Shown: positions 3,673 to 51,992 of the stretch, piece by piece
Position numbering within the stretch: the stretch's first letter is position 1
Layout of the letters: each line of letters begins with the position of its first letter
Virus record (IMG/VR): IMGVR_UViG_3300021140_000485
Source: a virus
Taxonomy: Duplodnaviria; Heunggongvirae; Uroviricota; Caudoviricetes
Direction: 5' to 3' (one strand)
Length of the DNA: 64,000 nucleotides
Translations under genes and position numbers: made by a program
The notes under the pieces: model-generated
Databases searched by the model: none
What the model saw: only the letters and a program-made list of their open reading frames with translations
What the model was told of the DNA's origin: nothing

Positions 3673-3718
3673 TCGAAATGAATGAGTTGGTTTCATATTT
3701 ATCACATATTTATCACAT

Positions 3719-4090
3719 ATGAAGTATATCATCACCGAAAGTAAATTAAACGAATATATCCTTAGTGTCATTGAAGAAATGTTCCCTGTTGATGATATTA
3801 ATTATACTGAAGCGTATGACGATGATGGGAATCCTGACGATACTGCCTATGTGTTTTATCTTGGGGATTATGAAAATGATGAAGTTATCTTCAGATGGTA
3901 TAGTAAGGATTATTGGGATGGTCCAGACGAAAGTACAGTTGATTATAGGATTAGACAATCCCCACTTTTAGTTTTTGAATCCAATAATACCTTTTATGAA
4001 ATAAATTCTATGTTCCAAAATTTATGGAAACCCGTATTTATTAAATGGTTTTACGAATCATTTTCATTACCAATTAAAACAATACTTTAA
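3719..4090 (+). CDS. Hypothetical protein of the leader family ('MKYIITESKLNEY').
   Basis: Paralogous N-terminus with the adjacent gene. Acidic and aromatic-rich. Confidence 0.6.
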   Translation: MKYIITESKLNEYILSVIEEMFPVDDINYTEAYDDDGNPDDTAYVFYLGDYENDEVIFRWYSKDYWDGPDESTVDYRIRQSPLLVFESNNTFYEINSMFQNLWKPVFIKWFYESFSLPIKTIL

Positions 4091-4091
4091 T

Positions 4092-4451
4092 ATGAATTAC
4101 CTCATCACCGAATCTCAGCTTGAATCTTTGGTAGAACAAAAATCCCCGAACAAAAACTTTGATAGATACAAAAAGATTATTATGAAAATGTTCCCTGAGA
4201 TTACTATGATGTTCTTAGGTGATAGTGTGGAAGGTTGGAGTTCATCTGATAATAAAGCATATCAAAAACAAATTATTAAAGTTGTATTTGACCCACGTAA
4301 AATCACTCAAGGTGAATACTTTGATGGATATTCTTATGACGCATATGAATCGTGTCGAAAAGTCCGTAAATTTATGATGTATGACCTTAATATGGACTTT
4401 GGTCGGCAGTGGGATTTAGATTGTTATCAAATCACTCTTAAAAAACTCTAA
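4092..4451 (+). CDS. Hypothetical protein of the leader family ('MNYLITESQLESL').
   Basis: Tandem paralogue of 3719..4090 with different codons but the same N-terminal peptide. Confidence 0.6.
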   Translation: MNYLITESQLESLVEQKSPNKNFDRYKKIIMKMFPEITMMFLGDSVEGWSSSDNKAYQKQIIKVVFDPRKITQGEYFDGYSYDAYESCRKVRKFMMYDLNMDFGRQWDLDCYQITLKKL

Positions 4452-4661
4452 TCTTTCTGATGCCGGGACCGAATCTTCCCCTACCCCTTCTTTGGTTATA
4501 ATCCCCACAATATCTGATAACCTTACGTTCATCGTTACCTTATTGTCAGTTAATCCTACATATAATTCAGGGTTGCCAGGAACTACATAAAAATCCTTTA
4601 TGGTCCATTCCTTTTCGTTGTAACTAATCTTCTTACTTATGATTGGAAATGCGTCTCTCAT
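4416..4661 (-). CDS. Hypothetical protein.
   Basis: 81-aa ORF that overlaps the 3' end of the plus-strand gene. Weak support. Confidence 0.35.
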   Translation of the reverse strand: MRDAFPIISKKISYNEKEWTIKDFYVVPGNPELYVGLTDNKVTMNVRLSDIVGIITKEGVGEDSVPASERLEFFKSDLITI

Positions 4662-4666
4662 AAAGA

Positions 4667-4822
4667 TTAAATATCTTTCTTGAGTCTAAATGTACACGCA
4701 GGTTTTCCATTAATTAGTGGCATTCCGTGTTCATCGTATGTGATTGACTTAACCACAACCTTTTTGTTCTTAAATCTACCCATAAGAACCGTGTCCCCCA
4801 CTTTGATGTCAATCTTAATCAT
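4667..4822 (-). CDS. Small KOW-like protein (51 aa), not in the ORF track.
   Basis: Manual translation gives 'MIKIDIKVGDTVLMGRFKNKKVVVKSI...', which resembles a KOW motif. Confidence 0.35.
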   Translation of the reverse strand: MIKIDIKVGDTVLMGRFKNKKVVVKSITYDEHGMPLINGKPACTFRLKKDI

Positions 4823-4825
4823 TGA

Positions 4826-5254
4826 TTAAACTGTTGGTCCACATCCAGGATTTTTGTTTGGTGAGGTACATTTAACACCCGTGTAAAAGTCAAACTTCTG
4901 TGGTTGGACTCTTATGTTATCCCACTCACCGAAATACTCTTTAAACTTACCGTTCTTAATCCTCTCCCTTATCTCATCTAATTGTGGTGTGTATTTGTTT
5001 TGTTGTTTGGCACCATACATAACACTCTCTATCTTTGCTTTGAAGAACGCTCCTGTGGGTCCGAGTTCTACAGGTGTTGATTGTGAAGTATCTTTGGTAT
5101 CATAAAACTTACCGTTCTCACCTTTAACATAGTAACCTAAAAGACTATCAATATCTTTTTCTAATCCACTTAAAACAGTTACAGGGTCTTTACCTTGTTC
5201 AGATATTACACCCATAACTTCCTTAATTCTTGATATTTGTTCTTGTAGGTTCAT
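4826..5254 (-). CDS. Hypothetical protein with the leader 'MNLQEQISRIKEVMGVISEQ'.
   Basis: Its first 28 nt are identical to those of the next gene. Confidence 0.65.
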   Translation of the reverse strand: MNLQEQISRIKEVMGVISEQGKDPVTVLSGLEKDIDSLLGYYVKGENGKFYDTKDTSQSTPVELGPTGAFFKAKIESVMYGAKQQNKYTPQLDEIRERIKNGKFKEYFGEWDNIRVQPQKFDFYTGVKCTSPNKNPGCGPTV

Positions 5255-5255
5255 A

Positions 5256-5693
5256 TTAACAATCTCCTATACCATAAAAAATGCAGTCAATAAGTTCTGC
5301 ATCATTTTTATCCCATATGTAAACCATAGAATCATTATCATTCATTCTATCCCTACATAATCTATGGTGTCCATCTATTACAATTAGTTTTCCCTTGTGT
5401 TTGTATAAATGAATATCTTTTTTATCATATGTTTCATCGGACATATCATTTACGTAGTCCATATTAATATCCTTTTGAACACTATAAACTTTCTTTGTTG
5501 GTGACAATCTTTGTTTTTTTGGGTTAAGTGTGTGTATTAATTCATCACTATCATTTACCACCATATCAAAAATGTTTGTGGATTCTAAATCTTTTTTTAA
5601 TTCAGGTTCGTACATAATTCCACAGTCTTTATGACTTTCGGTTATCATCCCCATCATTGATTGTATTCTTGATATTTGTTCTTGTAGGTTCAT
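5256..5693 (-). CDS. ParB/Srx-like nuclease-domain protein with the leader 'MNLQEQISRIQSMMGMITES'.
   Basis: The motif 'LIVIDGHHRL' is the DGHHR signature of ParB-like nuclease domains. Confidence 0.65.
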   Translation of the reverse strand: MNLQEQISRIQSMMGMITESHKDCGIMYEPELKKDLESTNIFDMVVNDSDELIHTLNPKKQRLSPTKKVYSVQKDINMDYVNDMSDETYDKKDIHLYKHKGKLIVIDGHHRLCRDRMNDNDSMVYIWDKNDAELIDCIFYGIGDC

Positions 5694-6478
5694 TACTTTT
5701 TATTCTTAACACAGTTAGGATATCTTTTACCAAACATCGTCTTCATACCTTTTTGAGTATATCCTTTCCAACATCTTTCAGTAATCTCGGTCTCACTTAA
5801 CGAACCTTTTAATTCATCTGCTTGTCGAGCTCGTAATTTCATCAAATACATTCGTTCAATCCACTCATCAGGCTCTTTTTGAAGTTCATCCTTCTTAAAT
5901 AAAGTATTTGGAATAATAAAGTCAATCATTTCGTCTTTGGTAATACCTTCAGGTTTTGTTGGTGGTGGAACACACACACTATTCATTTCTTGGTCTACAG
6001 ATATCTCATCAACATCAATATCATCCCTACCAACTATTTTATTTACCTCATCCAATTGTGTATCTTCAAACCACTGAAGCATCAAGTGAGTCAAATAAGT
6101 CCCTCTAAGTGATAGAATATTTAAAGTTTCTTTGAACTTACCTTTTGGTATAAATAACGTTCCTGATATAAATGCTCGTTCCATCATTTTTCTTGGGTCA
6201 TCCCACACACTTTCATCGTTGTGGAAAAATAATGCCAATTCCATTATAATTTTCCCGTCCTTACACCATTCCAAATCGTATCTTGTCTCATAATGTTTTA
6301 TAAGATATACATTGGAACCCTCAACATACTTATTCAGAATGTTATAAACCACTTTTTCTATATTAGGCGTAGGCTTAGTATATTTGGACCTAATCTGTTC
6401 CATCAATATTTCTTTAACACAATTCGTCAAGTTCATAATAATAAATACTTGGTTAATATTTATATTAACAATAGCCAC
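5693..6478 (-). CDS. Hypothetical protein.
   Basis: 261-aa ORF with a basic Cys-containing C-terminal tail. Confidence 0.55.
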   Translation of the reverse strand: MAIVNININQVFIIMNLTNCVKEILMEQIRSKYTKPTPNIEKVVYNILNKYVEGSNVYLIKHYETRYDLEWCKDGKIIMELALFFHNDESVWDDPRKMMERAFISGTLFIPKGKFKETLNILSLRGTYLTHLMLQWFEDTQLDEVNKIVGRDDIDVDEISVDQEMNSVCVPPPTKPEGITKDEMIDFIIPNTLFKKDELQKEPDEWIERMYLMKLRARQADELKGSLSETEITERCWKGYTQKGMKTMFGKRYPNCVKNKK

Positions 6479-8789: not shown

Positions 8790-8866
8790 TATTAAAAAAA
8801 AAGTTTCAACTTGTTTGGGTAGATTAAACGGTAAAAACTTATATTTGTGGGTATTTATCTTTAACT

Positions 8867-9760
8867 ATGAGTGATTACAGACAATATATTACGGAATCCG
8901 TAAATTTGCGTGACTATTTAACAGATTCTGATTACGAGATTATATTTTATGATATGTTGAGGGATTTTGCCTTCGAGAGAAATCCAAAGTTATCTCGTAG
9001 AATCAATATGTCATATCTAATGACTAATTTTTTAGATAGTTTTATTAAACACTATAATTTGGATAAGAATAAAACACGTTATAGTCCAAGAGGTATTCCT
9101 GCAATTTATGGTCGTGAACTTTATGACGCAGGTTTATATGAAGTATCAATTTATTCACCTGAGAAAAAATTTACAGACACGTTCAAAAGATATTTAAATT
9201 GGTCAATATCAAAAATGAATATACCTAAAGAAGTTAATTACACCGTAACTGAAGAAATACCTAATAATGTAGAATTCCGTACATTTATAAATTATGAAGA
9301 TATTGTTAAATCAGGCCAAGTAAATCCCGAAATTTTAAAATACACGTCTCGTTCATATTCATCTCCATTTAACAAATTAGTTAGTGACTTGAAGTCTGAG
9401 CTAAACCTAAAGAAGGGTAACCCAACTGAAGGAGGTATACAATTTAACGTATACGAAACAGAATATACTGGCCGTCAGGAGTGGACTCAAAAATTCCTTA
9501 AACAACTTAGAAAATTTGTCAAGTCAAACGAGTTTTTAAAAGACAAGGTTAAAGCAATTAAACTAAAAGAAAACAACTACAGAATGGACCTCGACATAAT
9601 TTTAAATAACCCTGACCAATACACATCTTGGCATAGTCGTAGTGAAAATAGAGAAAAATTACAAAATATTTTCACCGTTATTAAAGATTACATTGAAGGT
9701 GAAGGATATAGTTTATCAGTATTTGAAATAGATTCACCTACTATGAGAAAACACTTTTAA
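8867..9760 (+). CDS. Hypothetical protein. Its N-terminus carries 'YITES'.
   Basis: 297-aa ORF, followed by a bidirectional terminator. Confidence 0.55.
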   Translation: MSDYRQYITESVNLRDYLTDSDYEIIFYDMLRDFAFERNPKLSRRINMSYLMTNFLDSFIKHYNLDKNKTRYSPRGIPAIYGRELYDAGLYEVSIYSPEKKFTDTFKRYLNWSISKMNIPKEVNYTVTEEIPNNVEFRTFINYEDIVKSGQVNPEILKYTSRSYSSPFNKLVSDLKSELNLKKGNPTEGGIQFNVYETEYTGRQEWTQKFLKQLRKFVKSNEFLKDKVKAIKLKENNYRMDLDIILNNPDQYTSWHSRSENREKLQNIFTVIKDYIEGEGYSLSVFEIDSPTMRKHF

Positions 9761-9795: not shown

Positions 9796-10017
9796 TTACC
9801 AAGATTCAACATCAGTTAAATCAATTTCAACCTTAGCCAGGTGACTATAAACCACAAGACCATTTCCAATTCCTGTTGGAGTTATTTTCCAAGTGAATGT
9901 ACCATATTCTCCATAAATCGCTTTAATGTGTGATAACCATTCGTCATACATTTCCTGTTGTTTCTCATTAAGTTCCTCGTGAATTACAGTTTTTCTTATT
10001 TTATTCTCTTCCATCAC
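9796..10017 (-). CDS. Hypothetical protein.
   Basis: 73-aa ORF, 4-nt overlap with the RNA ligase gene. Confidence 0.45.
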   Translation of the reverse strand: MMEENKIRKTVIHEELNEKQQEMYDEWLSHIKAIYGEYGTFTWKITPTGIGNGLVVYSHLAKVEIDLTDVESW

Positions 10018-11027
10018 TTCTCGTTTAATAAGAATTTATTACTGATTGCTTTGAAACTTATTTTGGTATCGTAAGACCTAACCACAACACCTTCACGTTC
10101 AGTATTCCTGTTTAATACGGAACTACCTTCAGCATATTTTAACATACCTTCAACAGAATTTGGTAACAAGAAGTCCATCTCCAAGAAAGGAACATAATCA
10201 AAACCACAATTCTCCATAAGGTCAACAAACTTTGGCATAGTATATCTAACACCATTATCAATGTCAAAGGCGTTGAAGAACTTTACCATCTGACCTTTAA
10301 TTTTGTATGGGTTACCCTGAATACCTTCACCAATTAATTCACCTTGTAAACAAACGTTTTTGCCCAATGAACTTAACTTTTCTTCTATGTTCATTTCACG
10401 AGCAACTTTCCAAAAAGTATTACCTTCAGTTTCTAAAAGTTCCAAATTACGAGAACAAACACCAAACTCACCTTTTCTAAAGTAGAATGTTGCAGATGAA
10501 CCATCCAACTTTTCAGTTACGTAAAATTTGTGTTCACTCCTGTAACACATCGCAGAGTATTCAACAGAGATGTTCTGAACCCTTTCCTCATCAGTTTTGT
10601 GTAAGAACGATGGGAACGGACCTTTGACTTTACCAGCAAGTTCTGCGGGGATTGGTGGTTCGTATTTAACGATACCCAATCTCTCGGTAACATCAAGACC
10701 CTCATAAGCTGTCCAACCAAAGTCCCCGAAGACACTCATAGGTAAGATTAAACCTTGTGAAACTTGTCCACGAAGTTTAATGGTTTTTAAACGGAAACCT
10801 TCTTGGTCACCCATTTTTTTGTAAGACGATTTACGCAAGAACTCGAAATCTTCTTTGATTGGTAGGAATGAATCAATCTCACAGTATACACACAAGTCAC
10901 CAGGTTCGTATTCACCTTTCTTGGTAACAACCTTCCAACCTCCTACAACGGCAACTTCAATCGCATCGGCTCCGACGATTTCTTGGATGTCAGTAACTTT
11001 TCTAATAGACGCTAATTTTCTTTCCAT
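10014..11027 (-). CDS. ATP-dependent RNA ligase, DraRnl/Rnl5-like (N-terminal OB-like domain plus nucleotidyltransferase).
   Basis: Adenylation motif I 'TEKLDGSS' (KxDG) and covalent nucleotidyltransferase motifs are present. The N-terminus 'GADAIEVAVVGGWKVVTKKGEY' resembles DraRnl. Confidence 0.75.
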   Translation of the reverse strand: MERKLASIRKVTDIQEIVGADAIEVAVVGGWKVVTKKGEYEPGDLCVYCEIDSFLPIKEDFEFLRKSSYKKMGDQEGFRLKTIKLRGQVSQGLILPMSVFGDFGWTAYEGLDVTERLGIVKYEPPIPAELAGKVKGPFPSFLHKTDEERVQNISVEYSAMCYRSEHKFYVTEKLDGSSATFYFRKGEFGVCSRNLELLETEGNTFWKVAREMNIEEKLSSLGKNVCLQGELIGEGIQGNPYKIKGQMVKFFNAFDIDNGVRYTMPKFVDLMENCGFDYVPFLEMDFLLPNSVEGMLKYAEGSSVLNRNTEREGVVVRSYDTKISFKAISNKFLLNEK

Positions 11028-11053: not shown

Positions 11054-11743
11054 TTATCTGATTTTACCAACACTAAACCCGTCGCTATCTACAACAATCC
11101 CTGTTCTTTTGAAGAAATTTTCATAGAAGTAGTCATTTAATTCATCTTGTATCTCCATACTAACTTCCCATCCAATCTCCTCATCATTAACAACATCTTT
11201 CAAATTTCTAGGTTCATAGTCACCTGTCATAACTAAACTAACAGTACCATCTACGATTGCCCAAAAATCAATTCGTTTTAAATCTTCATTTACGTGGTAG
11301 TTTTTTATTTTGAAGTCAAAGTTGTATCCACCACTTTCTACGTGATGTTTTGATAACAAAAAGTCTAAATTATTTTTAATTATATTATCAAAACCACCCA
11401 ACACATTTCTAATTAAAATATGACGAGCTTTTTCAAGAGTCATCCCATTTTTACCAATAAAAAACTCTTTGAATGTGTCATCCAATAAAGGTCGTTTAGT
11501 TAAAACTCTTTTAACAGTCTCATCGAATGATGTGTCTTCATTGATTGGATTTGGTTGGTTATCGTGCCAACACTTATGACAAATGTATGTGTCATCACCA
11601 CCTTCAGATATCTTCCAAGACCACCCACAATTATCACATATAACCTCACCATTCTCAACTTTTTCGGTAAGTAATGTCATAACTTGTTTTATACGTGAAA
11701 TGTCTTCAGATAGTCTCATATTAATAAATATCCCTATCACCAA
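11054..11743 (-). CDS. Zinc-ribbon protein with the leader 'MRLSEDISRIKQVMTLLTEK'. The likely start is the internal Met at 11719.
   Basis: CxxC...CxxC ('CDNCGW...ICHKCW'). Confidence 0.55.
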   Translation of the reverse strand: MVIGIFINMRLSEDISRIKQVMTLLTEKVENGEVICDNCGWSWKISEGGDDTYICHKCWHDNQPNPINEDTSFDETVKRVLTKRPLLDDTFKEFFIGKNGMTLEKARHILIRNVLGGFDNIIKNNLDFLLSKHHVESGGYNFDFKIKNYHVNEDLKRIDFWAIVDGTVSLVMTGDYEPRNLKDVVNDEEIGWEVSMEIQDELNDYFYENFFKRTGIVVDSDGFSVGKIR

Positions 11744-12456
11744 TAACCAACATCTTTCTTAAAATGCTCAATGTTGTGTCTGTTAAAATAGTTGCTTATT
11801 ACCAATCTAATCATTCCAAAATACCCCATCTTTAGAAATCTACGATTATCTTGCCCAACATAGTGTTTTGATATTTGGAACTTTTTTGGACTGTATTGTT
11901 TACTGAGATGATAATCTTCTGAGTGTTGGAGTGTTTCATCGAACCCATCTGTACTGAAGAACGCACTACGAGTTGTCATAAAATAAGTCCCTAACGCAAA
12001 CGGAACTTTCTTTTTCATAATGTGATTAATCCTGTTGAAAATCTTAAATATCATTTCACATTTAACATCACCATTTATACACCTAACATTACAAGTCAAC
12101 AAATCAAGGTTGTTATCCTCCATTTGTTTTAACGTGTCTTTTATTTGATTTGGGTTTAATAACGTTGAGTCAGCATCAAGGAATAAAATATATGGTGTAG
12201 TACTTCTCATCGCACCTTGATTTCTCCCGTAAGCTACAGGACCACCATTAATCAACTCAATTTTGATTGTTGGCTCATAATAAGTTTTTAAAGACTTAAC
12301 TAAGTCTCTTGTACCATCGGTGCTCTTAGCGTCTGCGACAATAACTTTAGTTCCCCAAATCCCATTTTGTGAAGCGATACTTGTAATTGTAGCATCAATA
12401 TACTTCCATTCATTATAGGATGGTATCACAATTGTTAGTTTATCTTTAATACTCAT
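11737..12456 (-). CDS. Family-2 glycosyltransferase.
   Basis: 'LTIVIPSYNE', 'VIVADAKSTDGT' and 'LFLDADS' (DxD) are GT-A fold motifs. Confidence 0.8.
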   Translation of the reverse strand: MSIKDKLTIVIPSYNEWKYIDATITSIASQNGIWGTKVIVADAKSTDGTRDLVKSLKTYYEPTIKIELINGGPVAYGRNQGAMRSTTPYILFLDADSTLLNPNQIKDTLKQMEDNNLDLLTCNVRCINGDVKCEMIFKIFNRINHIMKKKVPFALGTYFMTTRSAFFSTDGFDETLQHSEDYHLSKQYSPKKFQISKHYVGQDNRRFLKMGYFGMIRLVISNYFNRHNIEHFKKDVGYW

Positions 12457-13135
12457 TCAATTCAAATTTTCCGTTATTATAAATAATGTAGGATTTGTTT
12501 TCAATCCAATCACCACAGTTAAGATAATGAACATCACTCACCATCTTATCAGATGGTTGATGTATGTGTCCACAAATCACTGTATCACATCCTCTTTTTT
12601 TCGCTTGGTAAGCCAATTGTTTCTCAAAGGATGTCATAAATTGTACCGCCTCTTTAACACTGTCTTTAAGGTATTTAGATAATGAAAACTTCATACCCAT
12701 ACCTTTTAGTTTTCTATCGACATAAATTGCTAAGTCATATCCCATTGAACCGATAACACCTAACCATTTCCACTTGACAACACCGTCATATAAATCACCG
12801 TGTGTTACAAAAACATTTTCACCAAACTTATATTCGTTGACGATTTTTATGTTACCGAAATCAATATCATCATACGACCTTAAGAAGTCATCGTGATTAC
12901 CTGATACGTAAATAACCTCAGTCCCATTCTTTGAGTAAGATAATATCTTTCTAATCACGTTTGTGTATGATTGTTTCCAATAAAATCTTTTTTTAAGTAA
13001 CCATCCATCTATAATGTCCCCCACCAAAAAAAGATATTTTGGTTCATACTTTTTAAGGACTTCAATTAGTTCTTCAGCGTTTACTCCTCGAGCACCCAAG
13101 TGAACATCTGAGATAAACAACGCATCAATTTTCAT
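12446..13135 (-). CDS. Calcineurin-like metallophosphoesterase (LpxH-like pyrophosphatase architecture).
   Basis: 'ISDVHLG' and 'LVGDIIDGW', plus later GNHD/GH motifs. Confidence 0.7.
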   Translation of the reverse strand: MKIDALFISDVHLGARGVNAEELIEVLKKYEPKYLFLVGDIIDGWLLKKRFYWKQSYTNVIRKILSYSKNGTEVIYVSGNHDDFLRSYDDIDFGNIKIVNEYKFGENVFVTHGDLYDGVVKWKWLGVIGSMGYDLAIYVDRKLKGMGMKFSLSKYLKDSVKEAVQFMTSFEKQLAYQAKKRGCDTVICGHIHQPSDKMVSDVHYLNCGDWIENKSYIIYNNGKFELNEY

Positions 13136-14154: not shown

Positions 14155-14556
14155 TTAAAGTTTAATCTCAAATCTATCTCTCATAGATTGTAATTTATCT
14201 TCAGGAACACCGTGAGCGTTTACTCCACCGTGACGATTTTCTACGATGATTGAAAACACCTTGTAATCCCAATCTTTTGCCATATCAATGTAACTCTGCA
14301 TTTCCCACTCCTGTGTAAATGTATTTGATACAACTATCACATTGTTCAACCCTGCGGTGTGATTTAAAATCATTGCAGTATTAACACTGTGTTGACACCA
14401 CTCGTGGGCGTCTCTCAATTTAGAACCATCGAACTTATATTCACCATTGACCATAAAGTATTGGTCAGTCTCAAAGTGAGTTCCCCCCAAGTTTTTTGCC
14501 AATGTTGATTTACCTGAACCAGGGACACCTCTAACTAAGTATAAAATCTTTTCCAT
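14155..14556 (-). CDS. P-loop NTPase / putative (poly)nucleotide kinase.
   Basis: Walker A 'GVPGSGKST'. 133 aa, AAA_33-like. Confidence 0.65.
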   Translation of the reverse strand: MEKILYLVRGVPGSGKSTLAKNLGGTHFETDQYFMVNGEYKFDGSKLRDAHEWCQHSVNTAMILNHTAGLNNVIVVSNTFTQEWEMQSYIDMAKDWDYKVFSIIVENRHGGVNAHGVPEDKLQSMRDRFEIKL

Positions 14557-19567: not shown

Positions 19568-19626
19568 AGTATTTTTATCTATAAATATACAATTACAAAG
19601 TATTTATCATATATCTTTGATTCATT

Positions 19627-27908: not shown

Positions 27909-28259
27909 ATGAGAGTAAAAATAGGTGAAAATATATTCAATGTGAAGATTAGACACGACAATAAAGGTCGTGCTATGGGTATGATGGGTCGTAAATTTAC
28001 TGACGAGTATAACGGTATGTTATTCTTTATGGATGAAGACTCAAGTTGTTTTTGGATGAAGAACTGCGTCATTCCTCTTGATATCATATTCATTGATAAT
28101 AGAGTAATAACTAAGATACACCACGACTGTCCTCCTTGTAAAGAAGATGACTGTCCAAGTTATTGTGGAAAGGGTGGAATGATTTTAGAAATTATGGGTG
28201 GTTCTGCAAAAGAACTCGATATCAAAAAAGGTGATGAGATTAAGATTCTTGTTGACTAG
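27909..28259 (+). CDS. DUF192-family protein.
   Basis: 'GMMGRKF....GMLFFMDEDSSCFWMKNCVIPLDIIFID' follows the DUF192/COG1430 pattern. Confidence 0.6.
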   Translation: MRVKIGENIFNVKIRHDNKGRAMGMMGRKFTDEYNGMLFFMDEDSSCFWMKNCVIPLDIIFIDNRVITKIHHDCPPCKEDDCPSYCGKGGMILEIMGGSAKELDIKKGDEIKILVD

Positions 28260-29658
28260 CATCAATCTTCTCTTGTAACTTTCTCAAAAATTCCTCACCA
28301 ATCATTTTAACAAACTTAATGTAAGGAGCGTCCTCTCTTTCAGGGTCGTATCTGTATGAACCTCTTGGTGGTCTTGTACTTCTTCCAAGATAGTTAAGTC
28401 CTGATATGTTGGTAATACATTTGTGTCCACCTGAGTTAGCTTGAATCAAGTCCCAAGCGTTGATACCAATCTTATCTAACATTTGCATTTCTTCTTCAGA
28501 TAGTTGGTCGTATGGTTTTTCCATCATATCCTTAATTTTATCAAGGATTTTTTCACCACCATCCATCATCATCAACTTACCACCATAAATTGCATCGAAG
28601 TCTTTGAATGTAAATCCTACTGATTCAGGTCCAACTGATGATTCACTCACATACTTTATCGTTGATAATGGGATTGTTCTATCTTTAAGTTGTCCCTCCC
28701 ATTTGGCCAGAACCTCTTGTGCAATCTCACCGAGATTAACACCTTTGAGTTCTCTATCTTTTTTGAATGGATTACAAGATGCCTGTACTAACCCTAACGG
28801 CCACATAATAATTAAGAAGTCAGCTTCAGGATTGTTTCTAAAAGGAGTGTATCGGTCATATGACCCAGTACCTTTTAAACTACCCATACCATACTGAACG
28901 ATGATATTACCAATCTTCCTAACATTTGGATGACCTTTCATTGAGTCCATATAGGTCTCAGCGTTTCTTTGAAGGTCCTCAGGTTTTTCTCTTGTATTGG
29001 AACCCATCCAAGATTTGATGTTGTTTAATATTGAAAGTAAGGATGGTTCCGAATCATTAACCAAGTATTCAAGGAACCCTTTCTTGTTTTTGAACGCCAA
29101 CAATAGTTTGTTTGTAACAAATCCTAACAACATTTTGTTACTAGCCAAATCTTTTTCTTTGTTAAGTCTAAACAAATAATTGATTACATCCTTGGTTGTT
29201 AAACCATATTTGGCAAAGTCTGCTGAGTCGACAGTTGATATTAATCTAATGTCATCAGCAGGAAATAATTCTTTTGGTGAGATAATTTGTGAAATGGTTT
29301 CAACGTTTGACCTTGCCTGTCTAAAAGACTTTGAAGCGTCTTTCTCAGCACCGACTTGTTTGTCGTGGTGGTCAGTGTGAATAACAAACATTGGTTTACC
29401 GTGAGCAAAATCAACTAAGACTGGCATTACATCACCAGATGCATCAGGTTTTTTAACTGAGAATTCTTTATCTCCATACTGTATAACCTCACTATCAACA
29501 ACTTTAATACCATTATCTTCAAGGTATTTTTTCATTGCAATTGCAGTTGTTACACCATCCAAATCTTGGTGGAAATATATTTTAGCCTTTGGGTATCTTT
29601 GTGCCAAAGCCTTAATGTCTCTTAAACCTGATTCCTTAATTATTTTTTTCATACACAC
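28240..29658 (-). CDS. DHH-family phosphoesterase (NrnA/RecJ-like DHH plus a C-terminal domain).
   Basis: 'FHQDLDGVTT' (DxD) and 'VIHTDHHDK' (DHH) motifs. 472 aa. Confidence 0.7.
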   Translation of the reverse strand: MCMKKIIKESGLRDIKALAQRYPKAKIYFHQDLDGVTTAIAMKKYLEDNGIKVVDSEVIQYGDKEFSVKKPDASGDVMPVLVDFAHGKPMFVIHTDHHDKQVGAEKDASKSFRQARSNVETISQIISPKELFPADDIRLISTVDSADFAKYGLTTKDVINYLFRLNKEKDLASNKMLLGFVTNKLLLAFKNKKGFLEYLVNDSEPSLLSILNNIKSWMGSNTREKPEDLQRNAETYMDSMKGHPNVRKIGNIIVQYGMGSLKGTGSYDRYTPFRNNPEADFLIIMWPLGLVQASCNPFKKDRELKGVNLGEIAQEVLAKWEGQLKDRTIPLSTIKYVSESSVGPESVGFTFKDFDAIYGGKLMMMDGGEKILDKIKDMMEKPYDQLSEEEMQMLDKIGINAWDLIQANSGGHKCITNISGLNYLGRSTRPPRGSYRYDPEREDAPYIKFVKMIGEEFLRKLQEKIDASQQES

Positions 29659-29661
29659 TAA

Positions 29662-30033
29662 TTACATTGATGGTAACATACTCATAAGAACCACATCGTT
29701 AGCTCTTAACCCATTTTTAGCCTTTAAATTACACAAATGATTGAATTTATACATATGGTTCGCTTGCATCGTCATATCTTCTAATTTACTCAAACTATCA
29801 CCAGGTTTGATTTTATACAACATTATGTTTTGCACACCTTCGTTTTTAATATCTTTAACTAAATCTTCTTTAGTGAAACAATATTTTGCACCGGCTTCAG
29901 TTGGTTTAGGACCTTTTTTAAGAATCTCTTCCGCTTTTTTAACGTAAAAAGATTCAGGTTGTGTCTGTTCACTAACAACCTTACGAATTAAGTTAGTTAA
30001 TTCTGACTCTGTTAATCTAATAACTTTTTTCAT
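29662..30033 (-). CDS. Hypothetical protein. Its N-terminus 'MKKVIRLTESELTNLIRKVVSEQ' belongs to the leader family.
   Basis: 123-aa ORF. Confidence 0.5.
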   Translation of the reverse strand: MKKVIRLTESELTNLIRKVVSEQTQPESFYVKKAEEILKKGPKPTEAGAKYCFTKEDLVKDIKNEGVQNIMLYKIKPGDSLSKLEDMTMQANHMYKFNHLCNLKAKNGLRANDVVLMSMLPSM

Positions 30034-30405: not shown

Positions 30406-31461
30406 TTAAGCCGTCATTGGTCCTTTTATTAATGTATTCATAAACATACCCATTATATCCATTTTTTGTGAACCTAAAGACATTTCGTTACCACCATCTT
30501 TAACTTCATCTGATACTTTTGGGAAATCCTCTTGTAAATATGTTTGTGCTTCAGGAGTTTTTTCATACTTCTCCATCTTGGCTAATAATTCGTCTTCCCC
30601 TCCAACTATTTTTTCAAGTTCATCTGGTCCAACAAAATTTGCAACACCTAAATAATCTAAGAATCCTAAATAGAATTTGGTTTTACCCATCAAAACTCTA
30701 ATCTTCATATTACCTTTTCTCCATAGGTCCGAAACTCTTCCAGCACCTAATCCACCACCATAAAAAAATCTTTGTAAAAAATTTGGTTTGTTTAAAATTG
30801 TGGGGTCCAAGAATTTTTCTCTCTTAACTAACGACTCAAGTCCTTGAATTAGTTCTTGTTGTTGTTTAGCAGATTTAGTAGGTAATCTTTTCGCTAAAGA
30901 AGCCGCCTCAGTTCCAACACCTCTAAAAAGTCTTACCCATTCTTTGATGGTGTTTTTAAATCCTCTTGTGATGGCTCCACCAGGTATACGGTCAATGAAT
31001 TCATCAACTTTTGGTGCCCATTCTCTACCTTTTCTTGCGAAAGTACCAAGAGCACCTTCACTTTTAGCAATTTGATTTAGATATTTTTGCGCTTTAACAG
31101 TATCACCAGCATCAACTGCTTTAGATACCGCTCTCATTAATTGAGGTGTTTTACCCCCAACTTTCATCGCTCCCATAACAGATTTACCTAAAGCATCACC
31201 AATGTAAGGGACAACAGAAATTAACGATAAAAAGGCATAAAGGTTATCGCCTTGTCTGTAATAAGATATTGCGTTTATTAAATCAGCAATTCCTGTTGGG
31301 TCTACAATCCCAACCAAACTTAACACATCATTTTTCCAATTGTCCTCGTTAAGAGTTTTAGTATCAGAAGTTTTTTCCAATACCATAACACTCTTAATGA
31401 TTTCAAGTTGGGATTCCGTTAATATTACTTGAGGCATAAATTCTTTTACAATAAATACCAA
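30406..31461 (-). CDS. Hypothetical protein. It carries 'MPQVILTESQLEIIKSV' near its N-terminus, so the start may be the internal Met at 31437.
   Basis: 351-aa ORF, Gly/Ala/Lys-rich. Confidence 0.55.
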   Translation of the reverse strand: MVFIVKEFMPQVILTESQLEIIKSVMVLEKTSDTKTLNEDNWKNDVLSLVGIVDPTGIADLINAISYYRQGDNLYAFLSLISVVPYIGDALGKSVMGAMKVGGKTPQLMRAVSKAVDAGDTVKAQKYLNQIAKSEGALGTFARKGREWAPKVDEFIDRIPGGAITRGFKNTIKEWVRLFRGVGTEAASLAKRLPTKSAKQQQELIQGLESLVKREKFLDPTILNKPNFLQRFFYGGGLGAGRVSDLWRKGNMKIRVLMGKTKFYLGFLDYLGVANFVGPDELEKIVGGEDELLAKMEKYEKTPEAQTYLQEDFPKVSDEVKDGGNEMSLGSQKMDIMGMFMNTLIKGPMTA

Positions 31462-33532: not shown

Positions 33533-34696
33533 TTAATCGTTATAAATTGAACCACTTTTATTTTCAGACTCTTCGAATTGATGTTGTTCCATAATATCTT
33601 TAAGTGGTGATTTTTGAGTATCAACTTTAGTATTCATATTATGAATAATCTTATCAAGAGTTAATGCAAAGTCCAGAGTTTCGGATATGATACCAACAAT
33701 TTTATATGGGTCACCATTTGATGCCGGTCTACGGTCTTCAACATAACCCTTCCATTCTTTTGATGTAGACAATGGAACTCTGATTGATGCACCTCGGTCA
33801 GCAACCCCCCAACTAAACTTGTCAATAGATTGGGTTTCGTGTTTACCAGTCAAACGAAGATTGTTATCAGAACCGTAATTGTTAATGTGTAACTGATGAC
33901 GTGAATCAAAGGCGTTAAAGATGTTTTTGAAGTATTCATCACCACCTTCATTTCTCATCTTGTCATTTGAGAAGTTACAGTGTAATCCTGAACCATTCCA
34001 ATCACCCATCACAGGTTTAGGGTGGAATTCAATCTTAAAACCATAGTCCTCAGACATTTGTTGTAAAATGTATCTCGACATCCACAAATCATCACCGGCC
34101 TTTAATTTACCTTTGGAGAATACCTGGTACTCCCACTGACCCAATAAGACCTCGGCGTTTGTACCTGTAATTTCAATACCTGCCAAGATACAATTTTCCA
34201 TATGAGTATCCACAAATTTTCTACCGTTAACTTGTCCGTTACCTACACCACAATAGTATTTTCCTTGTGGTTCAGGATATCCATTCTCAGGGAAACCCAA
34301 AGGTCTACCATCTTTCATAATGGTATACTCTTGTTCAAAACCAAACCAAAGGTCCTCTTCTTCTTCCCCAACAAGACTTCTTGTATTTGATACGTGTGGA
34401 GTCCCATCGGGATTCATAACCTCACACAACACCAAGAAAGACCATAGACCACCTTCGTTAAGTGAGTTGTGATAAACTCTAACAGGTTTCAAAATACAAT
34501 CAGAAAAATGTCCGTCAGCTTGTTGTGTTGATGAACCATCAAAACTCCACTCAGGGCAATCCTTCAGTGTTATAATATCCCCATATGGAATATTCTGAAG
34601 ACCAGTCTCTTCTTTTTCAATCACCTTAACCTTACTTCTAAGATTAGGTTCTGGCTGATACCCATCCAACCACACATATTCTAATTTAACTTTCAT
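33533..34696 (-). CDS. Glutamine synthetase type-II-like protein.
   Basis: 'LEYVWLDG', 'FDGSSTQQADG..SD..L.PV', 'LVLCEV', 'GVADRGASIRVP' and 'NGDPY' are colinear with the GSII beta-grasp and catalytic domains. Confidence 0.75.
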   Translation of the reverse strand: MKVKLEYVWLDGYQPEPNLRSKVKVIEKEETGLQNIPYGDIITLKDCPEWSFDGSSTQQADGHFSDCILKPVRVYHNSLNEGGLWSFLVLCEVMNPDGTPHVSNTRSLVGEEEEDLWFGFEQEYTIMKDGRPLGFPENGYPEPQGKYYCGVGNGQVNGRKFVDTHMENCILAGIEITGTNAEVLLGQWEYQVFSKGKLKAGDDLWMSRYILQQMSEDYGFKIEFHPKPVMGDWNGSGLHCNFSNDKMRNEGGDEYFKNIFNAFDSRHQLHINNYGSDNNLRLTGKHETQSIDKFSWGVADRGASIRVPLSTSKEWKGYVEDRRPASNGDPYKIVGIISETLDFALTLDKIIHNMNTKVDTQKSPLKDIMEQHQFEESENKSGSIYND

Positions 34697-36371: not shown

Positions 36372-38123
36372 TTAAAGTTTTATAATGTAATAAGTCTCTC
36401 CTTGGACGGTCTCTTCGTGAACCGCCCCATCATTGTGTGACATCATATCATAACTCTCATTATCGATAACAGTATCTATAAATTTTTCCTTATCAATAAA
36501 ATCATCTAATTCTAATCCGTAATCCTCCGCGTATCCAGTTGGGTTGTATCTAACTTCATCCAACTTACTTTCAATCATATTTTCAATATCATCGTCTGAA
36601 AAATCACCTTCAGGATTTTCTTCTATTTCTTCTTTTTGTTCTTCTAATTCAGTAATATAGTCTTCCAATTGACTAATTCTATCGTCAATTTTATCAACCT
36701 TATCTTCATCATCAATCCCATATTTAATTTTTTCAAGTCTTTCTATCTCCCTTTGTGTTTGTAAAACTCTAGCGTCAATAATTTTAATAGTTTCAACTTG
36801 TTTTGAATCTAATTGTCTTTGGGAATCGTCTAAATAAGCATCAGGCTCTTGGTAAACGTCCTGATTGAAATAATCATCAAACCAATTAAGTATTTCATCC
36901 TCATTAACCGCATTATCCTTAACCCAACTAGCAAACCCATCATACCCTTCAGTATCAACCATATCCTCAACATACTCTCTCAACGCATCATCCATCTCCG
37001 TCTCGGTACCCACAGTATATTCATCACCATATAGTTCAGTTGCAAATTTTTGCATTCCATAGTGTTGGGATTCCAAAGGTATTAAATCGTAAACGTCTTT
37101 ATATTCTTTAAACTCATCTAACTCTTCTTCTAATTGTTCAATCTGAGATAATAAATCATACCTTACAGTATCAGAATTTTCATATTCTTCTTGAAGTTCA
37201 CTTATTCTTTCTAAAATATCCGTTCTTCTTTCTTCATCATCTTCACTCATAGATTCGATTTCTCCCTCTGAAACCAAATAATCAAAAAGTGCGTGTGCCA
37301 TCAATCCTATAGTTGGGCAATCAGGACCTAACTCCCACTCTTTATCAATTCTTCGTTCATTTGCTTCTTCCATAGACAATCTTTTTTCTTGAGCAATCCT
37401 TTTTTCTTGTTCTTTTTTATCAATATCAGTCTTTGTTATGTAGTAATCTAAATTACTCATTTTGTCTTCATATTTTCTCTCAAGAAAACTAATAATAAAC
37501 GAATACACAACATTAAAGTTTGGTATAGAATTTAAAACATCCTCCATACCAACTCTCACATTTTTAACATAAAAATAAGGTTTGGAGTTTCTAACAAAAA
37601 CAATTGTTATTTTTTCCTCAGGATTATTTTTATTAATTAAATAGACAATTTTTTTGTCCCCATATTCCCCATATGTTATGTTAAACGAGTTTTCACTACT
37701 AACGTCGACACATCCTACAGAATCTTTACCATAATAACAAGCGCCTGATTGGGTAGATGGTGAAACAATCAATAATTTATCATCTTCAAATATTATGGAC
37801 TTGTTATTGGTAGTGGTCATATTGTTTAGATATTGACCGGTAAAACTATCTATTTGGTTTTTTAAATCTTCATATGAACCAAACTTATTAATGTCAGTTG
37901 TTTGTAAAACACCTTTAAGTCTTTCAAATTTCTGTGTCAAATCAATAATATTAATTAAGTTAATATTATCCCCTTCTTCAGGGAATTTGTTTGCAACCCA
38001 ATCCCAATACTCAGGTTGGATGTATTTTACTATTGACGATAAGAGTGGTAAACTCAGTTTGTCCTTATATTTTGTTGTAAAATCAGACTTACTTTGTTCT
38101 TTTAATAACTTACGGATTGACAT
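36372..38123 (-). CDS. Large acidic hypothetical protein (Asp/Glu-rich C-terminal half).
   Basis: 583-aa ORF. Confidence 0.6.
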   Translation of the reverse strand: MSIRKLLKEQSKSDFTTKYKDKLSLPLLSSIVKYIQPEYWDWVANKFPEEGDNINLINIIDLTQKFERLKGVLQTTDINKFGSYEDLKNQIDSFTGQYLNNMTTTNNKSIIFEDDKLLIVSPSTQSGACYYGKDSVGCVDVSSENSFNITYGEYGDKKIVYLINKNNPEEKITIVFVRNSKPYFYVKNVRVGMEDVLNSIPNFNVVYSFIISFLERKYEDKMSNLDYYITKTDIDKKEQEKRIAQEKRLSMEEANERRIDKEWELGPDCPTIGLMAHALFDYLVSEGEIESMSEDDEERRTDILERISELQEEYENSDTVRYDLLSQIEQLEEELDEFKEYKDVYDLIPLESQHYGMQKFATELYGDEYTVGTETEMDDALREYVEDMVDTEGYDGFASWVKDNAVNEDEILNWFDDYFNQDVYQEPDAYLDDSQRQLDSKQVETIKIIDARVLQTQREIERLEKIKYGIDDEDKVDKIDDRISQLEDYITELEEQKEEIEENPEGDFSDDDIENMIESKLDEVRYNPTGYAEDYGLELDDFIDKEKFIDTVIDNESYDMMSHNDGAVHEETVQGETYYIIKL

Positions 38124-38210
38124 TATTTTTTATTTGATAAATACTTTGATTGATTTATATTTCTACAAGTTTACTATTTATATGTAATAAAACTCCAATA
38201 CTACAAAATT

Positions 38211-39447: not shown

Positions 39448-42400
39448 ATAATCCCCTTTAGTTTAGCTTTATCCAAAACTTTTTTAGCTCTCTCTTCAAG
39501 AGATGTTATTCTAACCTCTTGTTCTTTTAACGCTTCAATGTTAACGGCAATCATTTCTTTATAATTCATTGTTAACACTTTACCTTCAGTATAAATAACT
39601 TCAGGAACATAAGGCAAAACTTCTTGAGCAATAAATCCAATAGCTTTTTTGTCATTAGAACTATATTCTTTACCTCTCCATTTAAATGTGACACCTCTAA
39701 TACTTAATATCTTATTTAGAGCATCACCGATAGGTTTAACATCTTTTTTCAGTCTTTCATCTGAAGGACCTGTTGGTCCTTGTGGACCTTGAGCTCCTTG
39801 TGCTCCGAATGTTGAACTAGCACCTCCTTGAGCCCCTGGTGCTCCTTGTGCCCCTGTTGGACCTGGTGTTGCAGAACCTTGAGCACCTGTTGGTCCTTTA
39901 AGACCTGTAGGTCCTTGTGCACCGACGGCTCCCTCAAAACCTTGTGAACCTTGAGCTCCTTGAGCCCCTGTTGCACCTTGTGCACCTTGTGGTCCATTAG
40001 GAGACGTTGGCCCTTGAGCCCCTTGAGCTCCTTGAGCTCCAATAGCACCTGAATTTCCTTGAGCGCCTTGAGCACCTTGAGCGCCGGCTGTACCTGAACC
40101 TTGAGCACCTTGAGGTCCTGTTGGTCCTGTTGCACCTTGAGGTCCTGTTGGTCCTGTTGCACCTTGAGCACCTTGAAATCCTTGACCCCCTGTAGGTCCT
40201 ACGGCTCCTTGTGAACCTTGAGCCCCTTGAGGTCCTGTTGGTCCTGTTGCACCTTGAGCTCCTTGAGCTCCAACAGGTCCTTGAGCACCTGTGGCTCCTT
40301 GGAATCCCTGCTGACCATTAGGTCCTATTCCACCTACGTCCCCTTGAGCACCTTGCGCTCCTTGGAATCCTTGTCCTCCTGTTGCTCCTTGAGACCCTTG
40401 AGCACCTGTTCCTCCTTGAGCTCCCTGAAAACCTTGTCCTCCTTGCGCCCCTTGTGGACCTTGAGCTCCTGTGGCACCTTGAGCACCTTGAGCTCCCTGC
40501 CCACCTTGCGCTCCTTGTGGACCTATTGCTCCTTGGAAACCTTGTGCTCCTTGAAAACCTTGTCCTCCTTGAGCCCCTTGAGTTCCTGTTGCTCCTTGAG
40601 CACCTTGAGCCCCTTGTGCTCCCTGTCCTCCTGTTGCGCCTTGAGCTCCTTGTGCTCCTTGTCCTCCTGTTGCTCCTTGGACTCCTTGTCCACCTGTTGC
40701 TCCTTGCGCACCTTGGTTACCAACAGCACCTTGAGCTCCTTGGAAACCTTGAGCCCCCTGACCTCCTTGTGCACCTTGTACTCCAACAGCACCTTGAGCC
40801 CCTTGTGCTCCTTGGAAACCTTGTCCTCCTTGAGCACCTTGAGTACCTGATATACCTACAGAACCTTGAGAACCTTGAGCCCCTTGTCCTCCTTGAGCAC
40901 CTTGAGTTCCTGATACACCTTGAGCTCCTTGAGCCCCTTGGAAACCTTGACCTCCTTGAGCACCTTGAGTTCCTGTTGTACCTTGAGCCCCTTGAGCTCC
41001 TTGAAAACCTTGTCCTCCTTGAGCTCCTTGGGTTCCTGTTGCTCCTTGAGCTCCTTGAGCTCCTTGAGCTCCTTGGAAACCTTGAGCACCTTGGGTTCCT
41101 GTTGCACCTTGAGCCCCTTGAGCTCCTTGGAAACCTTGACCTCCTTGAGCCCCTTGGGTTCCTGTCGCTCCTTGTGCACCTTGAGCTCCTTGTGCTCCCT
41201 GTCCACCCTGAGCACCCTGAGTTGCTGTCGCTCCTTGCGCTCCTTGAGCTCCTTGAGCTCCTTGACCACCTTGAGCACCTTGGTTACCAACTGCCCCTTG
41301 TGAACCTTGAGCCCCTTGTGCTCCTTGTCCACCTTGGGCTCCCTGATTACCTTTAGCCCCTTGAGCTCCTTGCGCCCCTTGGGCTCCTTGACCACCTTGA
41401 GCACCTTGGTTACCAACTGCCCCTTGTGAACCTTGAGCCCCTTGCGCTCCTTGTCCACCTTGCGCTCCTTGTCCACCTTGAGCACCTTGAGCCCCTTGTG
41501 CTCCTTGAGCACCTTGTCCTCCTTGAGCACCTTGTGTTCCCGTTGCACCTTGAGCACCTTGAGCTCCTTGGAAACCTTGTCCACCTTGAGCACCCTGTGT
41601 TCCTGTTGCTCCTTGAGCCCCTTGTGCTCCTTGGGCTCCTTGTCCACCTTGAGCACCCTGTGTTCCTGTTGCACCTTGAGCACCTTGTGCTCCTTGGGCT
41701 CCTTGTCCACCTTGGGCACCTTGGTTACCCTTTCCACCTTGAGCACCTTGTGCTCCTTGGGCCCCTTGTCCACCTTGAGCACCCTGATTACCTGTCGCAC
41801 CCTGAGCCCCTTGAGCTCCTTGAGCTCCCTGTCCACCTTGTGCACCTTGGTTACCAACCGCTCCTTGTGAACCTTGAGCTCCTTGAGCTCCTTGTCCTCC
41901 TTGGGCGCCTTGGTTACCAACCGCTCCTTGTGAACCTTGAGCTCCTTGAGCACCTTGTCCACCTTGAGCACCTTGATTACCTTTTCCACCTTGAGCGCCT
42001 TGAGCTCCTTGAGCTCCTTGTCCTCCTTGGGCACCTTGGTTACCAACCGCTCCTTGTGAACCTTGAGCTCCTTGAGCTCCTTGTCCACCTTGAGCGCCTT
42101 GATTACCTTTTCCACCTTGGGCGCCTTGAGCACCTTGAGCACCTTGTCCTCCTTGAGCCCCTTGGTTACCTGTTGCCCCTTGAGCTCCTTGTGCGCCTTG
42201 TGAACCTTGCCCTCCTGTTGCTCCTTGGGAACCTTGAGCTCCTTGGGCTCCTTGACTACCAACCGCTCCTTGAGCACCTTGGTTACCAGTATTACCCTGA
42301 GCACCTTGTCCTCCTTGGGCACCTTGATTACCTTGAGCGCCTTGTGGTCCAGCATTTACATTACCTTTCCATCCGGTAGAGTCTATTATTAATCCGTAAT

Positions 42401-42602
42401 TGTTTGTAACTGTATTAGCACTTAAATTTGTATTTTGTACTTGGAATATAGGTGCTGTCTTGGCAATTTTTAGATATGTTGTTGTTTGATTTACAACATA
42501 ATTCAATGTAGAACTAGAATATACCAAATCACTTCGAGTATTCCCCGAATCATAAAATTGTATTGTTATACTTGCAGGTACTATTATTATATTCTCAGCC
42601 AC
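39444..42602 (-). CDS. Collagen-like (Gly-X-Gln triplet) fibre protein with a C-terminal intramolecular-chaperone / peptidase S74 domain. Candidate tail fibre.
   Basis: About 290 uninterrupted G-x-Q triplets. The C-terminus '[12 protein letters not shown]....FKWR......GFIAQEV' matches the SDxRLK auto-cleaving chaperone signature. The N-terminal roughly 90 aa is non-repetitive. Confidence 0.85.
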
Positions 42603-45600: not shown

Positions 45601-46017
45601 TTGAGCACCTTGTGCTCCTACTGCTCCTTGAGCACCAGTACTACCTTGTGCTCCTTGAGCTCCTGTACTACCACCCCCACCTTGAGCTCCCGTTGTTCCT
45701 TGTGCCCCAACATTTCCTTGAGCTCCTTGAGCACCTTTAATAGTTGTTTGTGGTCCAATCCATACACCGGCATTATTAATCATATTTTGACCACCAACCC
45801 ATAAACCTGATGGTGAACTTGATATTGTAACACCTGTAGTTGTTATGTCATTATTACTGAAAACTACTAATGATGGACTTGTTGTTGCAGAAAATTTGAC
45901 ATCACCCGGTGCAACCATATTAATTTGGATACTATCCGCAGCAGACGCCCCCTCGTATACTATATGAGGCGATGAGTTTCCTGTAGTTCCACTTGGATAT
46001 ATTATTACGTCTGCCAT
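42595..46017 (-). CDS. Collagen-like fibre protein paralogue 2 with a C-terminal S74 chaperone domain.
   Basis: Gly-X-Y repeats with periodic one-residue insertions ([12 protein letters not shown]). The C-terminus is '[12 protein letters not shown]...VSFDW...GFIAQQV'. Confidence 0.85.
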
Positions 46018-46020
46018 ATA

Positions 46021-49000: not shown

Positions 49001-49284
49001 TTACCTTGGAATCCTGTTATATTTGTTCCAGGTCCTAACCAAGCACCTGTACCATTTAATACTTGAATTCCTCCAATAGTTAGATTATTAATGATATTAA
49101 TATCATCATACGCTTGGATACCACCCGATGACATTAATAATGTAGAACCCCACTTTATAGAAGTACCAGCACCATAAGGTCTGACCTCTAACCTCAAAGT
49201 TCCCGTATTTTCAAAATCAATATAGGGAATCCTTCCGGGATTCGGGACTAAATTACCAGGTACAATTGTTATATTTTTTGCCAT
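46021..49284 (-). CDS. Collagen-like fibre protein paralogue 3 with a Cys-rich linker and a C-terminal S74 chaperone domain.
   Basis: G-N-x / G-A-Q triplets. The C-terminus is '[13 protein letters not shown]...VEFDWNE...FGFIAQEV'. Confidence 0.85.
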
Positions 49285-49345
49285 CAGGGATTTTTCTACT
49301 CTCTATAAATACAATTCTTATGCTTTTTAGATAAACAAAAAACAA

Positions 49346-51946: not shown

Positions 51947-51992
51947 TATCTTACAAATTTAATAATAAATATACAATTAACCACAAATTATT

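Follow-up and report, generated by a model that had tools for sequence, protein, structure and literature searches.

Proteins of a giant freshwater phage share a modular N-terminal leader, a candidate head-targeting propeptide

In a 64,000-nt stretch of viral DNA (one strand of IMG/VR record IMGVR_UViG_3300021140_000485, Caudoviricetes; hereafter the window), about 13 of the 93 open reading frames (ORFs; ~14%) start with a related short leader, which spans 7–23 aa from Met1. We propose, with a confidence that stays just short of even, that this leader would act as a modular head-targeting propeptide, equivalent in function to the T4 capsid targeting sequence (CTS), in jumbo phages of Bacteroidota with a T4-type head. 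This appears to be the best reading because transcription units that begin with leader genes share a TATTTAT motif with portal, protease and scaffold genes. A preliminary description of the window had already put a propeptide forward, and the idea stands in part. The phage family has an S77 protease, a scaffold and a Gp23 capsid protein, the capsid sequence LINE↓A (arrow, predicted cut) matches the leader end, 61 of 68 helix leaders carry a hydrophobic-x-Glu (h-x-E) site, the upstream motif is shared and the genes behave as cassettes, whereas the presumed paralogy of the proteins and the enrichment of a generic L/I-x-E did not hold up. Genes are named below by their first coordinate, and L-numbers designate IMG/VR stretches.

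The leader has two modules, which can be combined. The first is a short N-terminal strand ending in h-h-T-E-S (h, hydrophobic), as in MKYIITES, and all short leaders of the window end in h-h-T/K-E. The second is an amphipathic helix, MNLQEQISRIKxMMG, followed by [VL]-I-[NST]-E. Its hydrophobic positions 3, 7, 10, 14 and 17 form a heptad pattern and are, with E5 and R9, the best-conserved part of the leader. Both modules are present in genes 29662 and 30406. A single-sequence AlphaFold2 prediction for the 5256 protein placed a helix at residues 3–20, in a poor model (predicted local distance difference test score, pLDDT, 37). The eight N-termini quoted in the preliminary description are all present in the window, at the coordinates given there, and further carriers were found in 28240, 18773, 36372 and 50612 and, in weaker form, in 5693 and 53221. 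The leader genes and associated elements are as follows.

3719–4090, + strand: short-leader gene, 123 aa; MKYIITES at 3719–3742; TATTTAT twice, at 3696–3702 and 3707–3713
4092–4451, + strand: short-leader gene, 119 aa; MNYLITES at 4092–4115; follows 3719 in the same transcription unit
4826–5254, − strand: helix-leader gene, 142 aa; leader MNLQEQISRIKEVMGVISEQ at 5195–5254
5256–5693, − strand: helix-leader gene, 145 aa; leader MNLQEQISRIQSMMGMITES at 5634–5693
5693–6436, − strand: first gene of the operon, 247 aa; weaker leader MNLTNCVKEILMEQ; C-terminal CWKGYTQKGMKTMFGKRYPNCVK; GTATTTAT at 6441–6448
8867–9760, + strand: 297-aa protein; leader MSDYRQYITES; GTATTTAT at 8851–8858
11054–11719, − strand: zinc-ribbon protein, 221 aa; diverged helix leader MRLSEDISRIKQVMTLLTEK, written with different codons
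18773–19567, − strand: lysozyme-like protein, 264 aa; leader-like start MSKPLLKEVNKQFRLMGLNEQ; TATATTTAT at 19581–19589
28240–29652, − strand: DHH-type protein, 470 aa; minimal leader MKKIIKES
29662–30033, − strand: 123-aa protein; composite leader MKKVIRLTESELTNLIRKVVSEQ; profile hit with an independent E-value of 7e-9
30406–31437, − strand: first gene of an operon, 343 aa; composite leader MPQVILTESQLEIIKSVMVLEK; GTATTTAT at 31451–31458
36372–38123, − strand: acidic protein, 583 aa; leader-like start MSIRKLLKEQS; GTATTTAT at 38137–38144
49305–49312, − strand: GTATTTAT motif upstream of the collagen-like fibre gene 46021–49284; reference for the late-type promoter motif that the leader genes share
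50612–51946, − strand: 444-aa protein; leader-like start MKFANVLKKIILEQS; TATATTTAT at 51965–51973
56792–58531, − strand: Lys/Glu-rich protein, 579 aa; internal leader-like helix NESVKLTENEIIDLIERIVMEQS

The four genes between 3719 and 5693 had been described as adjacent and their products as paralogous. Two small minus-strand ORFs (4416–4661 and 4667–4822) are in fact interposed, and BLAST similarity is confined to residues 1–23 and 1–38 of the proteins. Since similarity between the flagged proteins ends after the leader, their bodies are not paralogues; those of the 3719 and 4092 proteins are unrelated. The identification of a ParB-like nuclease (5256) found no support in Pfam or in a PDB sequence search, its DGHHR motif being recognized by eye only.

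The N-terminal position of the motif is far from random. We counted it in the 93 ORFs (19,406 residues), taking the first 25 residues as N-terminal. TES occurs six times in this region versus four times elsewhere, an 11-fold excess (binomial estimate, p ~4e-4), and h-[h/T]-[TSK]-E-[SQK] 12 versus seven times, a 12.6-fold excess (p ~2e-7). Overall, the N-terminal enrichment of the extended motif is 11- to 15-fold. As had been pointed out, the same peptide is obtained with different codons, the Ser of TES being encoded by AGT, TCT, TCC or TCA depending on the gene; this variation argues for selection on the peptide.

Two promoter-like motif classes were found upstream of ~30 window genes. TAT(A)TTTAT lies 11–25 nt before the ATG in all seven transcription units that begin with a leader gene, versus 13 of 46 others (hypergeometric estimate, p ~5e-4). 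It is found again 5–29 nt upstream of the portal, protease and scaffold genes in L235, and it precedes a fibre gene of the window. Host-type (Bacteroidota) TAnnTTTG promoters are present in the window as well, and genes carrying them there never bear a leader. The TAnnTTTG class accompanies enzyme genes (RNA ligase, kinase, Dam; for instance 10014–11027, 14155–14556 and 51993–52832). In the phage-type (G)TAT(A)TTTAT class, the motif stands 5–29 nt ahead of the start codon of leader genes, fibre genes and the lysis cassette, and of the head genes of relatives (for instance 46021–49284 and 56792–58531); its probable reader is the phage sigma factor encoded at 62651–63451.

The capsid protein provides a comparison for the leader end. 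T4-type gp23 loses a propeptide of 65 residues (PMC5694885). In a MAFFT alignment, E65↓A66 of T4 gp23 (sequence confirmed at 100% identity) shares its invariant columns with LINE↓A of the family and with IVSE↓A of Flavobacterium phage immuto, which is in culture. The capsid L-I-N-E↓A, a predicted maturation site, matches the tetrapeptide type found at the end of the leader. Among 68 unique helix leaders, 61 have [ILVM]-x-E at residues 17–19 or 23, as compared with 14% of background windows.

It had been suggested to locate the prohead protease, the major capsid gene and the cleavage motif elsewhere in the genome. All were found in relatives, the motif as LINE↓A in the capsid protein, while the contig of the window (64 kb and flanks) does not reach the head module. 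The block to the right of the window (a 722–747-aa protein, a RuvC-like protein, primase, exonuclease, SbcD, SbcC and a sigma factor) recurs on IMG/VR contigs of 185–326 kb, several of them of 293–326 kb. The head set of the relatives comprises Terminase_6N, Portal_T4, a Peptidase_S77 prohead protease, an acidic (gp22-like) scaffold and Gp23, the capsid lineage of the latter being found on contigs of 222–326 kb. Exact look-up of a conserved window protein gave no contig >200 kb, and the flank was connected to the head module via a less conserved tail gene adjoining the capsid gene. This gene (696 aa) lies 7–9 kb from the capsid gene, beside the capsid and scaffold genes and on the same contigs as the right-flank block; head module and block, syntenic with the right flank of the window, occur together on contigs of 199–326 kb. 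Since tail, capsid and scaffold genes share contigs with the flank block, the window family has a T4-type head and an S77 protease.

A T4-type head module is present on two contigs that bear leaders themselves, L026 and L044; in L026, Pfam confirmed Peptidase_S77, Gp23 and Portal_T4. Leader genes adjoin the capsid gene and are also located after baseplate-hub-like genes. The huge phage LR756508.1 is the best GenBank match both for the flank SbcC and for the capsid protein, and immuto has the head module and ~10 window genes in common. In the same module, the T4-type portal gene of L026 (12215–13924) contains an intein (Pfam Intein_splicing), and a small ribosomal protein S21-like gene lies between portal and protease in L235 (6577–6768) and also in L236 and L238. 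The window protein 56792–58531 and the gp22-like scaffold of L236 (8077–9963) share an 84-residue module (DFDFDYDEEEFDD..., 46% identity), and the window protein possibly belongs to the core or the interior of the head. A scaffold segment, MKEEINQLVKESLSEQ, was considered as a further leader because of its resemblance; it has no score against the leader profile and was not retained as evidence.

To assess the distribution of the leader, IMG/VR was scanned with a DNA pattern covering all synonymous codons of M-N-L-[QK]-E-[QH]-I-S-R-[IM]-[KQ]. Matches were obtained in 58 stretches, on contigs of 4–316 kb and often in two to four tandem genes. The helix leader is joined there to >40 unrelated bodies (counted as body clusters) of 90–600 aa. 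Pfam has no family for most of them, and the few exceptions include P-loop kinases and proteins with peptidoglycan-binding domains. A scan of 185,579 bacterial and archaeal genomes gave no match to the helix-leader pattern; a related pattern retrieved only phage-like contigs and one likely chance match. A 44-column leader profile searched against 5.8 billion proteins gave hits down to E = 1e-12, all to short fragments. Separately, of 70 profile hits to the leader, 61 were N-terminal. The tblastn search of GenBank phages with leader peptides returned nothing useful, and nothing relevant to the peptide string was found in the literature. Among GenBank phages the helix leader is absent apart from a diverged form in immuto, where diverged leaders are carried by gp083, gp230 and gp231.

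Hypervariability of the locus, which the preliminary description had recommended checking, was indeed observed, in the form of an array of cassettes that shuffle among related phages (L002, L063, L067). The 145-aa protein of 5256–5693 has an identical copy in a different tandem array of L002, and its cassette is found within other arrays in all three of these stretches. Homologous bodies carry different leaders or none. For example, the L068 homologue of 11054 has another leader type (MKDLILKVLREE), and at the same junction the longer leader of the L043 homologue of 28240 ends in LLNES. Homologues of 5693 adjoin leader genes at 33 loci. Within tandem arrays, genes abut as TAATATG. Leader/body junctions deduced from BLAST alignment starts were too noisy for statistics. 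The conserved C-terminal motif CWKGYTQKGMKTMFGKRYPNCVK of 5693–6436, also present in L034 (8909–10696), turns up in several PHROG families without a known function. It belongs to a set of small, basic, Cys-rich modules shuffled among leader-locus proteins, others being KKPKGS..GPWVNIC..PCGR..YPKCR and KVYPSAYANGYAVQVCKG.

If the leader is a head-targeting propeptide, the following steps can be envisaged. Leader genes would be transcribed late, from the same phage-specific type of promoter as the portal, protease and scaffold genes, as suggested by the shared motif. The amphipathic helix would dock the protein on the scaffolding core of the prohead and the Peptidase_S77 prohead protease would cut after the Glu of h-h-[TNS]-E, by analogy with the aligned capsid L-I-N-E↓A. 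The mature cargo, which would comprise kinases, a phosphoesterase, peptidoglycan hydrolases, basic Cys-rich modules and many unknowns, would be held in the head and enter the host with the DNA. A pattern of cassette swapping between phages is seen in the sequences, and the first 15 codons, by virtue of their near-identical DNA, may double as a recombination joint for the exchange of cargo cassettes. We hold it possible, with clear reservations, that cargo is loaded in a plug-and-play manner, one address tag of near-identical DNA bringing dozens of enzymes, each replaceable by another, into a T4-type capsid to be co-injected, and serving at the same time as the joint through which cassettes are traded.

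Several observations weigh against a head-targeting propeptide. The generic L/I-x-E, presented in the preliminary description as an invariant core, is not enriched at the N-termini of the 93 ORFs beyond 1.3-fold; an equal frequency at internal positions had been named there as a refuting observation, and the extended motif is enriched at N-termini. Seven of the 68 helix leaders have no h-x-E and the helix is more conserved than the Glu. L-T-E-S-x-L also fits a hydrophobic staple and capping box at a helix start, and such a helix N-cap would account for the T and S without a protease. Copies of the helix are also found at internal and C-terminal positions, at module junctions, as in ..KPKNES-MKKTIRLTENDLIRIIKKVITEQ.. 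and in the window protein 56792. Leaders on ~14% of ORFs would make a large cargo list. The head module is seen in relatives only (45–75% identity, flank protein). The T4 leader is MKTYQEFIAE, and by inspection the leader described here has no likeness to it beyond the terminal h-x-E, for which reason it would be an analogue and not a homologue of the T4 CTS. Finally, the conservation of synonymous sites points to an additional constraint on the nucleic acid.

The helix could alternatively remain uncleaved and serve as a general docking or oligomerisation module for a common non-capsid partner (for instance a hub of the phage or of the host, a chaperone or a membrane), or as a linker between modules of one protein. 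We consider this unlikely, although it is a serious rival because the helix is also internal and C-terminal, because seven of 68 leaders lack the site and because of a fusion in L028. There, at 11793–12662, two leader genes are fused, so that the second leader (..KRNQQEQISRIRSMMGIVTE..) is now internal; its body stands alone in L023. Conservation highest in the helix (E5, R9 and positions 3, 7, 10, 14 and 17) is in line with docking, as are its copies at module junctions. A chaperone partner would agree with the phage DnaJ of the window and with the Clp-like ATPases adjoining leader genes in L068 and L234. The latter are, as read by eye, presumably Clp-type AAA+ ATPase genes (752–2752 and 3872–5875, respectively) on unrelated contigs, and their adjacency may be a coincidence or a functional link. 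No partner was found, however, and docking does not say why 90% of copies should have a Glu at a fixed distance. It also leaves unexplained the match to the predicted capsid maturation site, the late-type promoter and the location of leader genes inside structural modules.

At the DNA level, a block spanning −4 to +44 hardly varies across 63 unique copies, synonymous sites included: Leu3 is encoded by CTA in 78% of copies (9% genome-wide), Ile7 by ATA in 97% (38%) and Ser8 by TCA in 95% (34%). Conservation is lost upstream of −4 and past codon 15, and the leader RNA is weakly structured, folding less well than 191 of 200 shuffles. Bacteroidota do not use Shine-Dalgarno sites. Taken with the TAATATG abutment of genes in tandem arrays, the fixed synonymous sites, the sharp limits of the block and the poor folding would suit a primary role of the nucleic acid, as an unstructured A-rich translation start and/or a homology joint for cassettes, the peptide being a tolerated by-product. 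We regard this as improbable. Diverged leaders such as that of 11054 keep the peptide pattern with other codons (Ser AGT versus TCN), conservation of the DNA does not extend to the short and composite leader types, the heptad amphipathic pattern implies a function of the peptide, and the motif also occurs far from start codons. Since the peptide pattern survives codon changes while synonymous sites are fixed, both levels are constrained and a nucleic-acid role cannot by itself account for the pattern.

A chance or compositional effect is conceivable, as AT-rich genomes favour Lys, Ile and Asn at N-termini and the generic L/I-x-E is unenriched, yet it is effectively ruled out by the 11- to 15-fold enrichment of the extended motif, by profile E-values reaching 1e-12 among 5.8 billion proteins and by a virus-only distribution (58 viral stretches and zero bacterial with the all-codon pattern). 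Two other kinds of leader were rejected. Sec, Tat or lipoprotein signals have an uncharged core of at least ~8 residues, whereas E5, R9 and K/Q11 interrupt the hydrophobic positions here; true lipoprotein signals elsewhere in the window differ from the leader. Leaders of precursors of ribosomally synthesized and post-translationally modified peptides precede a short core, with modifying enzymes nearby, whereas the bodies here are of 90–600 aa and some are recognisable enzymes.

The proposed head-targeting propeptide can be compared with several known systems. The internal proteins of T-even phages are a diverse set sharing only the CTS (PMC3012670). As in the T4 CTS of IPI–III, Alt and gp24, we find an N-terminal leader of 10–20 residues ending in h-x-E, a gp20/gp21(S77)/gp22/gp23 head in the phage family, and a very diverse cargo with the leader alone in common and loci that vary among relatives (PMC3012670, PMC5694885). 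In contrast to T4, the leader is longer and in two parts (strand and helix), its carriers are far more numerous (>40 bodies; ~14% of window ORFs), tandem arrays and internal or C-terminal copies occur, the host belongs to the Bacteroidota and the genome is of ~300 kb. In the giant phages phiKZ, 201phi2-1 and SPN3US, processing after Glu affects many proteins of the inner head, and the N-termini of paralogues are identical (PMC5694885). The N-terminal propeptides of their head and ejection proteins are mostly >100 residues long and cut at A/S/G-x-E, and a propeptide of their type was rejected here on account of P3 (I/L/V/M), of the leader length (7–23 aa) and of the S77 protease. The phiKZ group uses a different, phiKZ-type enzyme.

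Cassette exchange has parallels of its own. Arbiol et al. in 2010 reportedly described PeSL mobile regulatory cassettes in hyperplastic regions of T4-type genomes. In both cases short conserved DNA blocks at gene boundaries permit the shuffling of small accessory genes. PeSLs are non-coding (promoter and stem-loop), whereas the block described here consists of the first 15 codons, with unconserved upstream sequence. Polymorphic toxins and effectors are bacterial secretion substrates with large N-terminal domains. They likewise combine a conserved N-terminal trafficking module with swappable C-terminal enzymatic modules and arrays of alternative cassettes, unlike the leader in that the latter is phage-only and of 7–23 residues.

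If confirmed, the head-targeting leader would be an analogue of the T4 CTS put to far wider use and at the same time a joint for cassette exchange, showing how phages trade cargo via a conserved coding joint; with plug-and-play loading it would amount to a phage counterpart of polymorphic effector delivery, on a scale unseen in T4. It would mark the proteins that abundant uncultured freshwater jumbo phages inject into Bacteroidota, which would be likely anti-defence or host-takeover factors, mostly of no known family. It would also offer a natural tag to package foreign proteins in these capsids, as with the T4 leader. As immuto, a cultured relative, has a diverged leader and the same protease type, the propeptide reading can be tested now.

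The window comes from a giant freshwater phage of Bacteroidota, of a family of 290–326 kb. TAnnTTTG promoters, signal peptides of Bacteroidota style and a fibre with SprB repeats agree and point to this host. The window has a G+C content of ~32% and encodes, among others, a sigma-70 factor, a Dam methylase, an amidase, DnaJ and collagen-like fibres; no close relative was found among GenBank phages. The fibre genes with collagen-like repeats (39749–49284) have a G+C content of 48–56%, and the ORF calls at 39749–39997 and 40856–42355 in this repeat region are out-of-frame artefacts. A full DnaJ and an Hc1 histone-like protein are encoded together with what we take, reading the sequence by eye, to be a glutamine-synthetase-like protein (33533–34696, 53523–54458 and 56036–56209, coordinates given jointly for the three). 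Composite leaders (MKIKKNGQVIRLTESDLKKIVKRVLIEQ) and Bacteroidota-style signal peptides are also present in QCKH01000009.1 (L231/L232; 64 kb), a contig of a Prochlorococcus single-cell assembly, which is probably a marine flavobacterial phage and not Prochlorococcus DNA.

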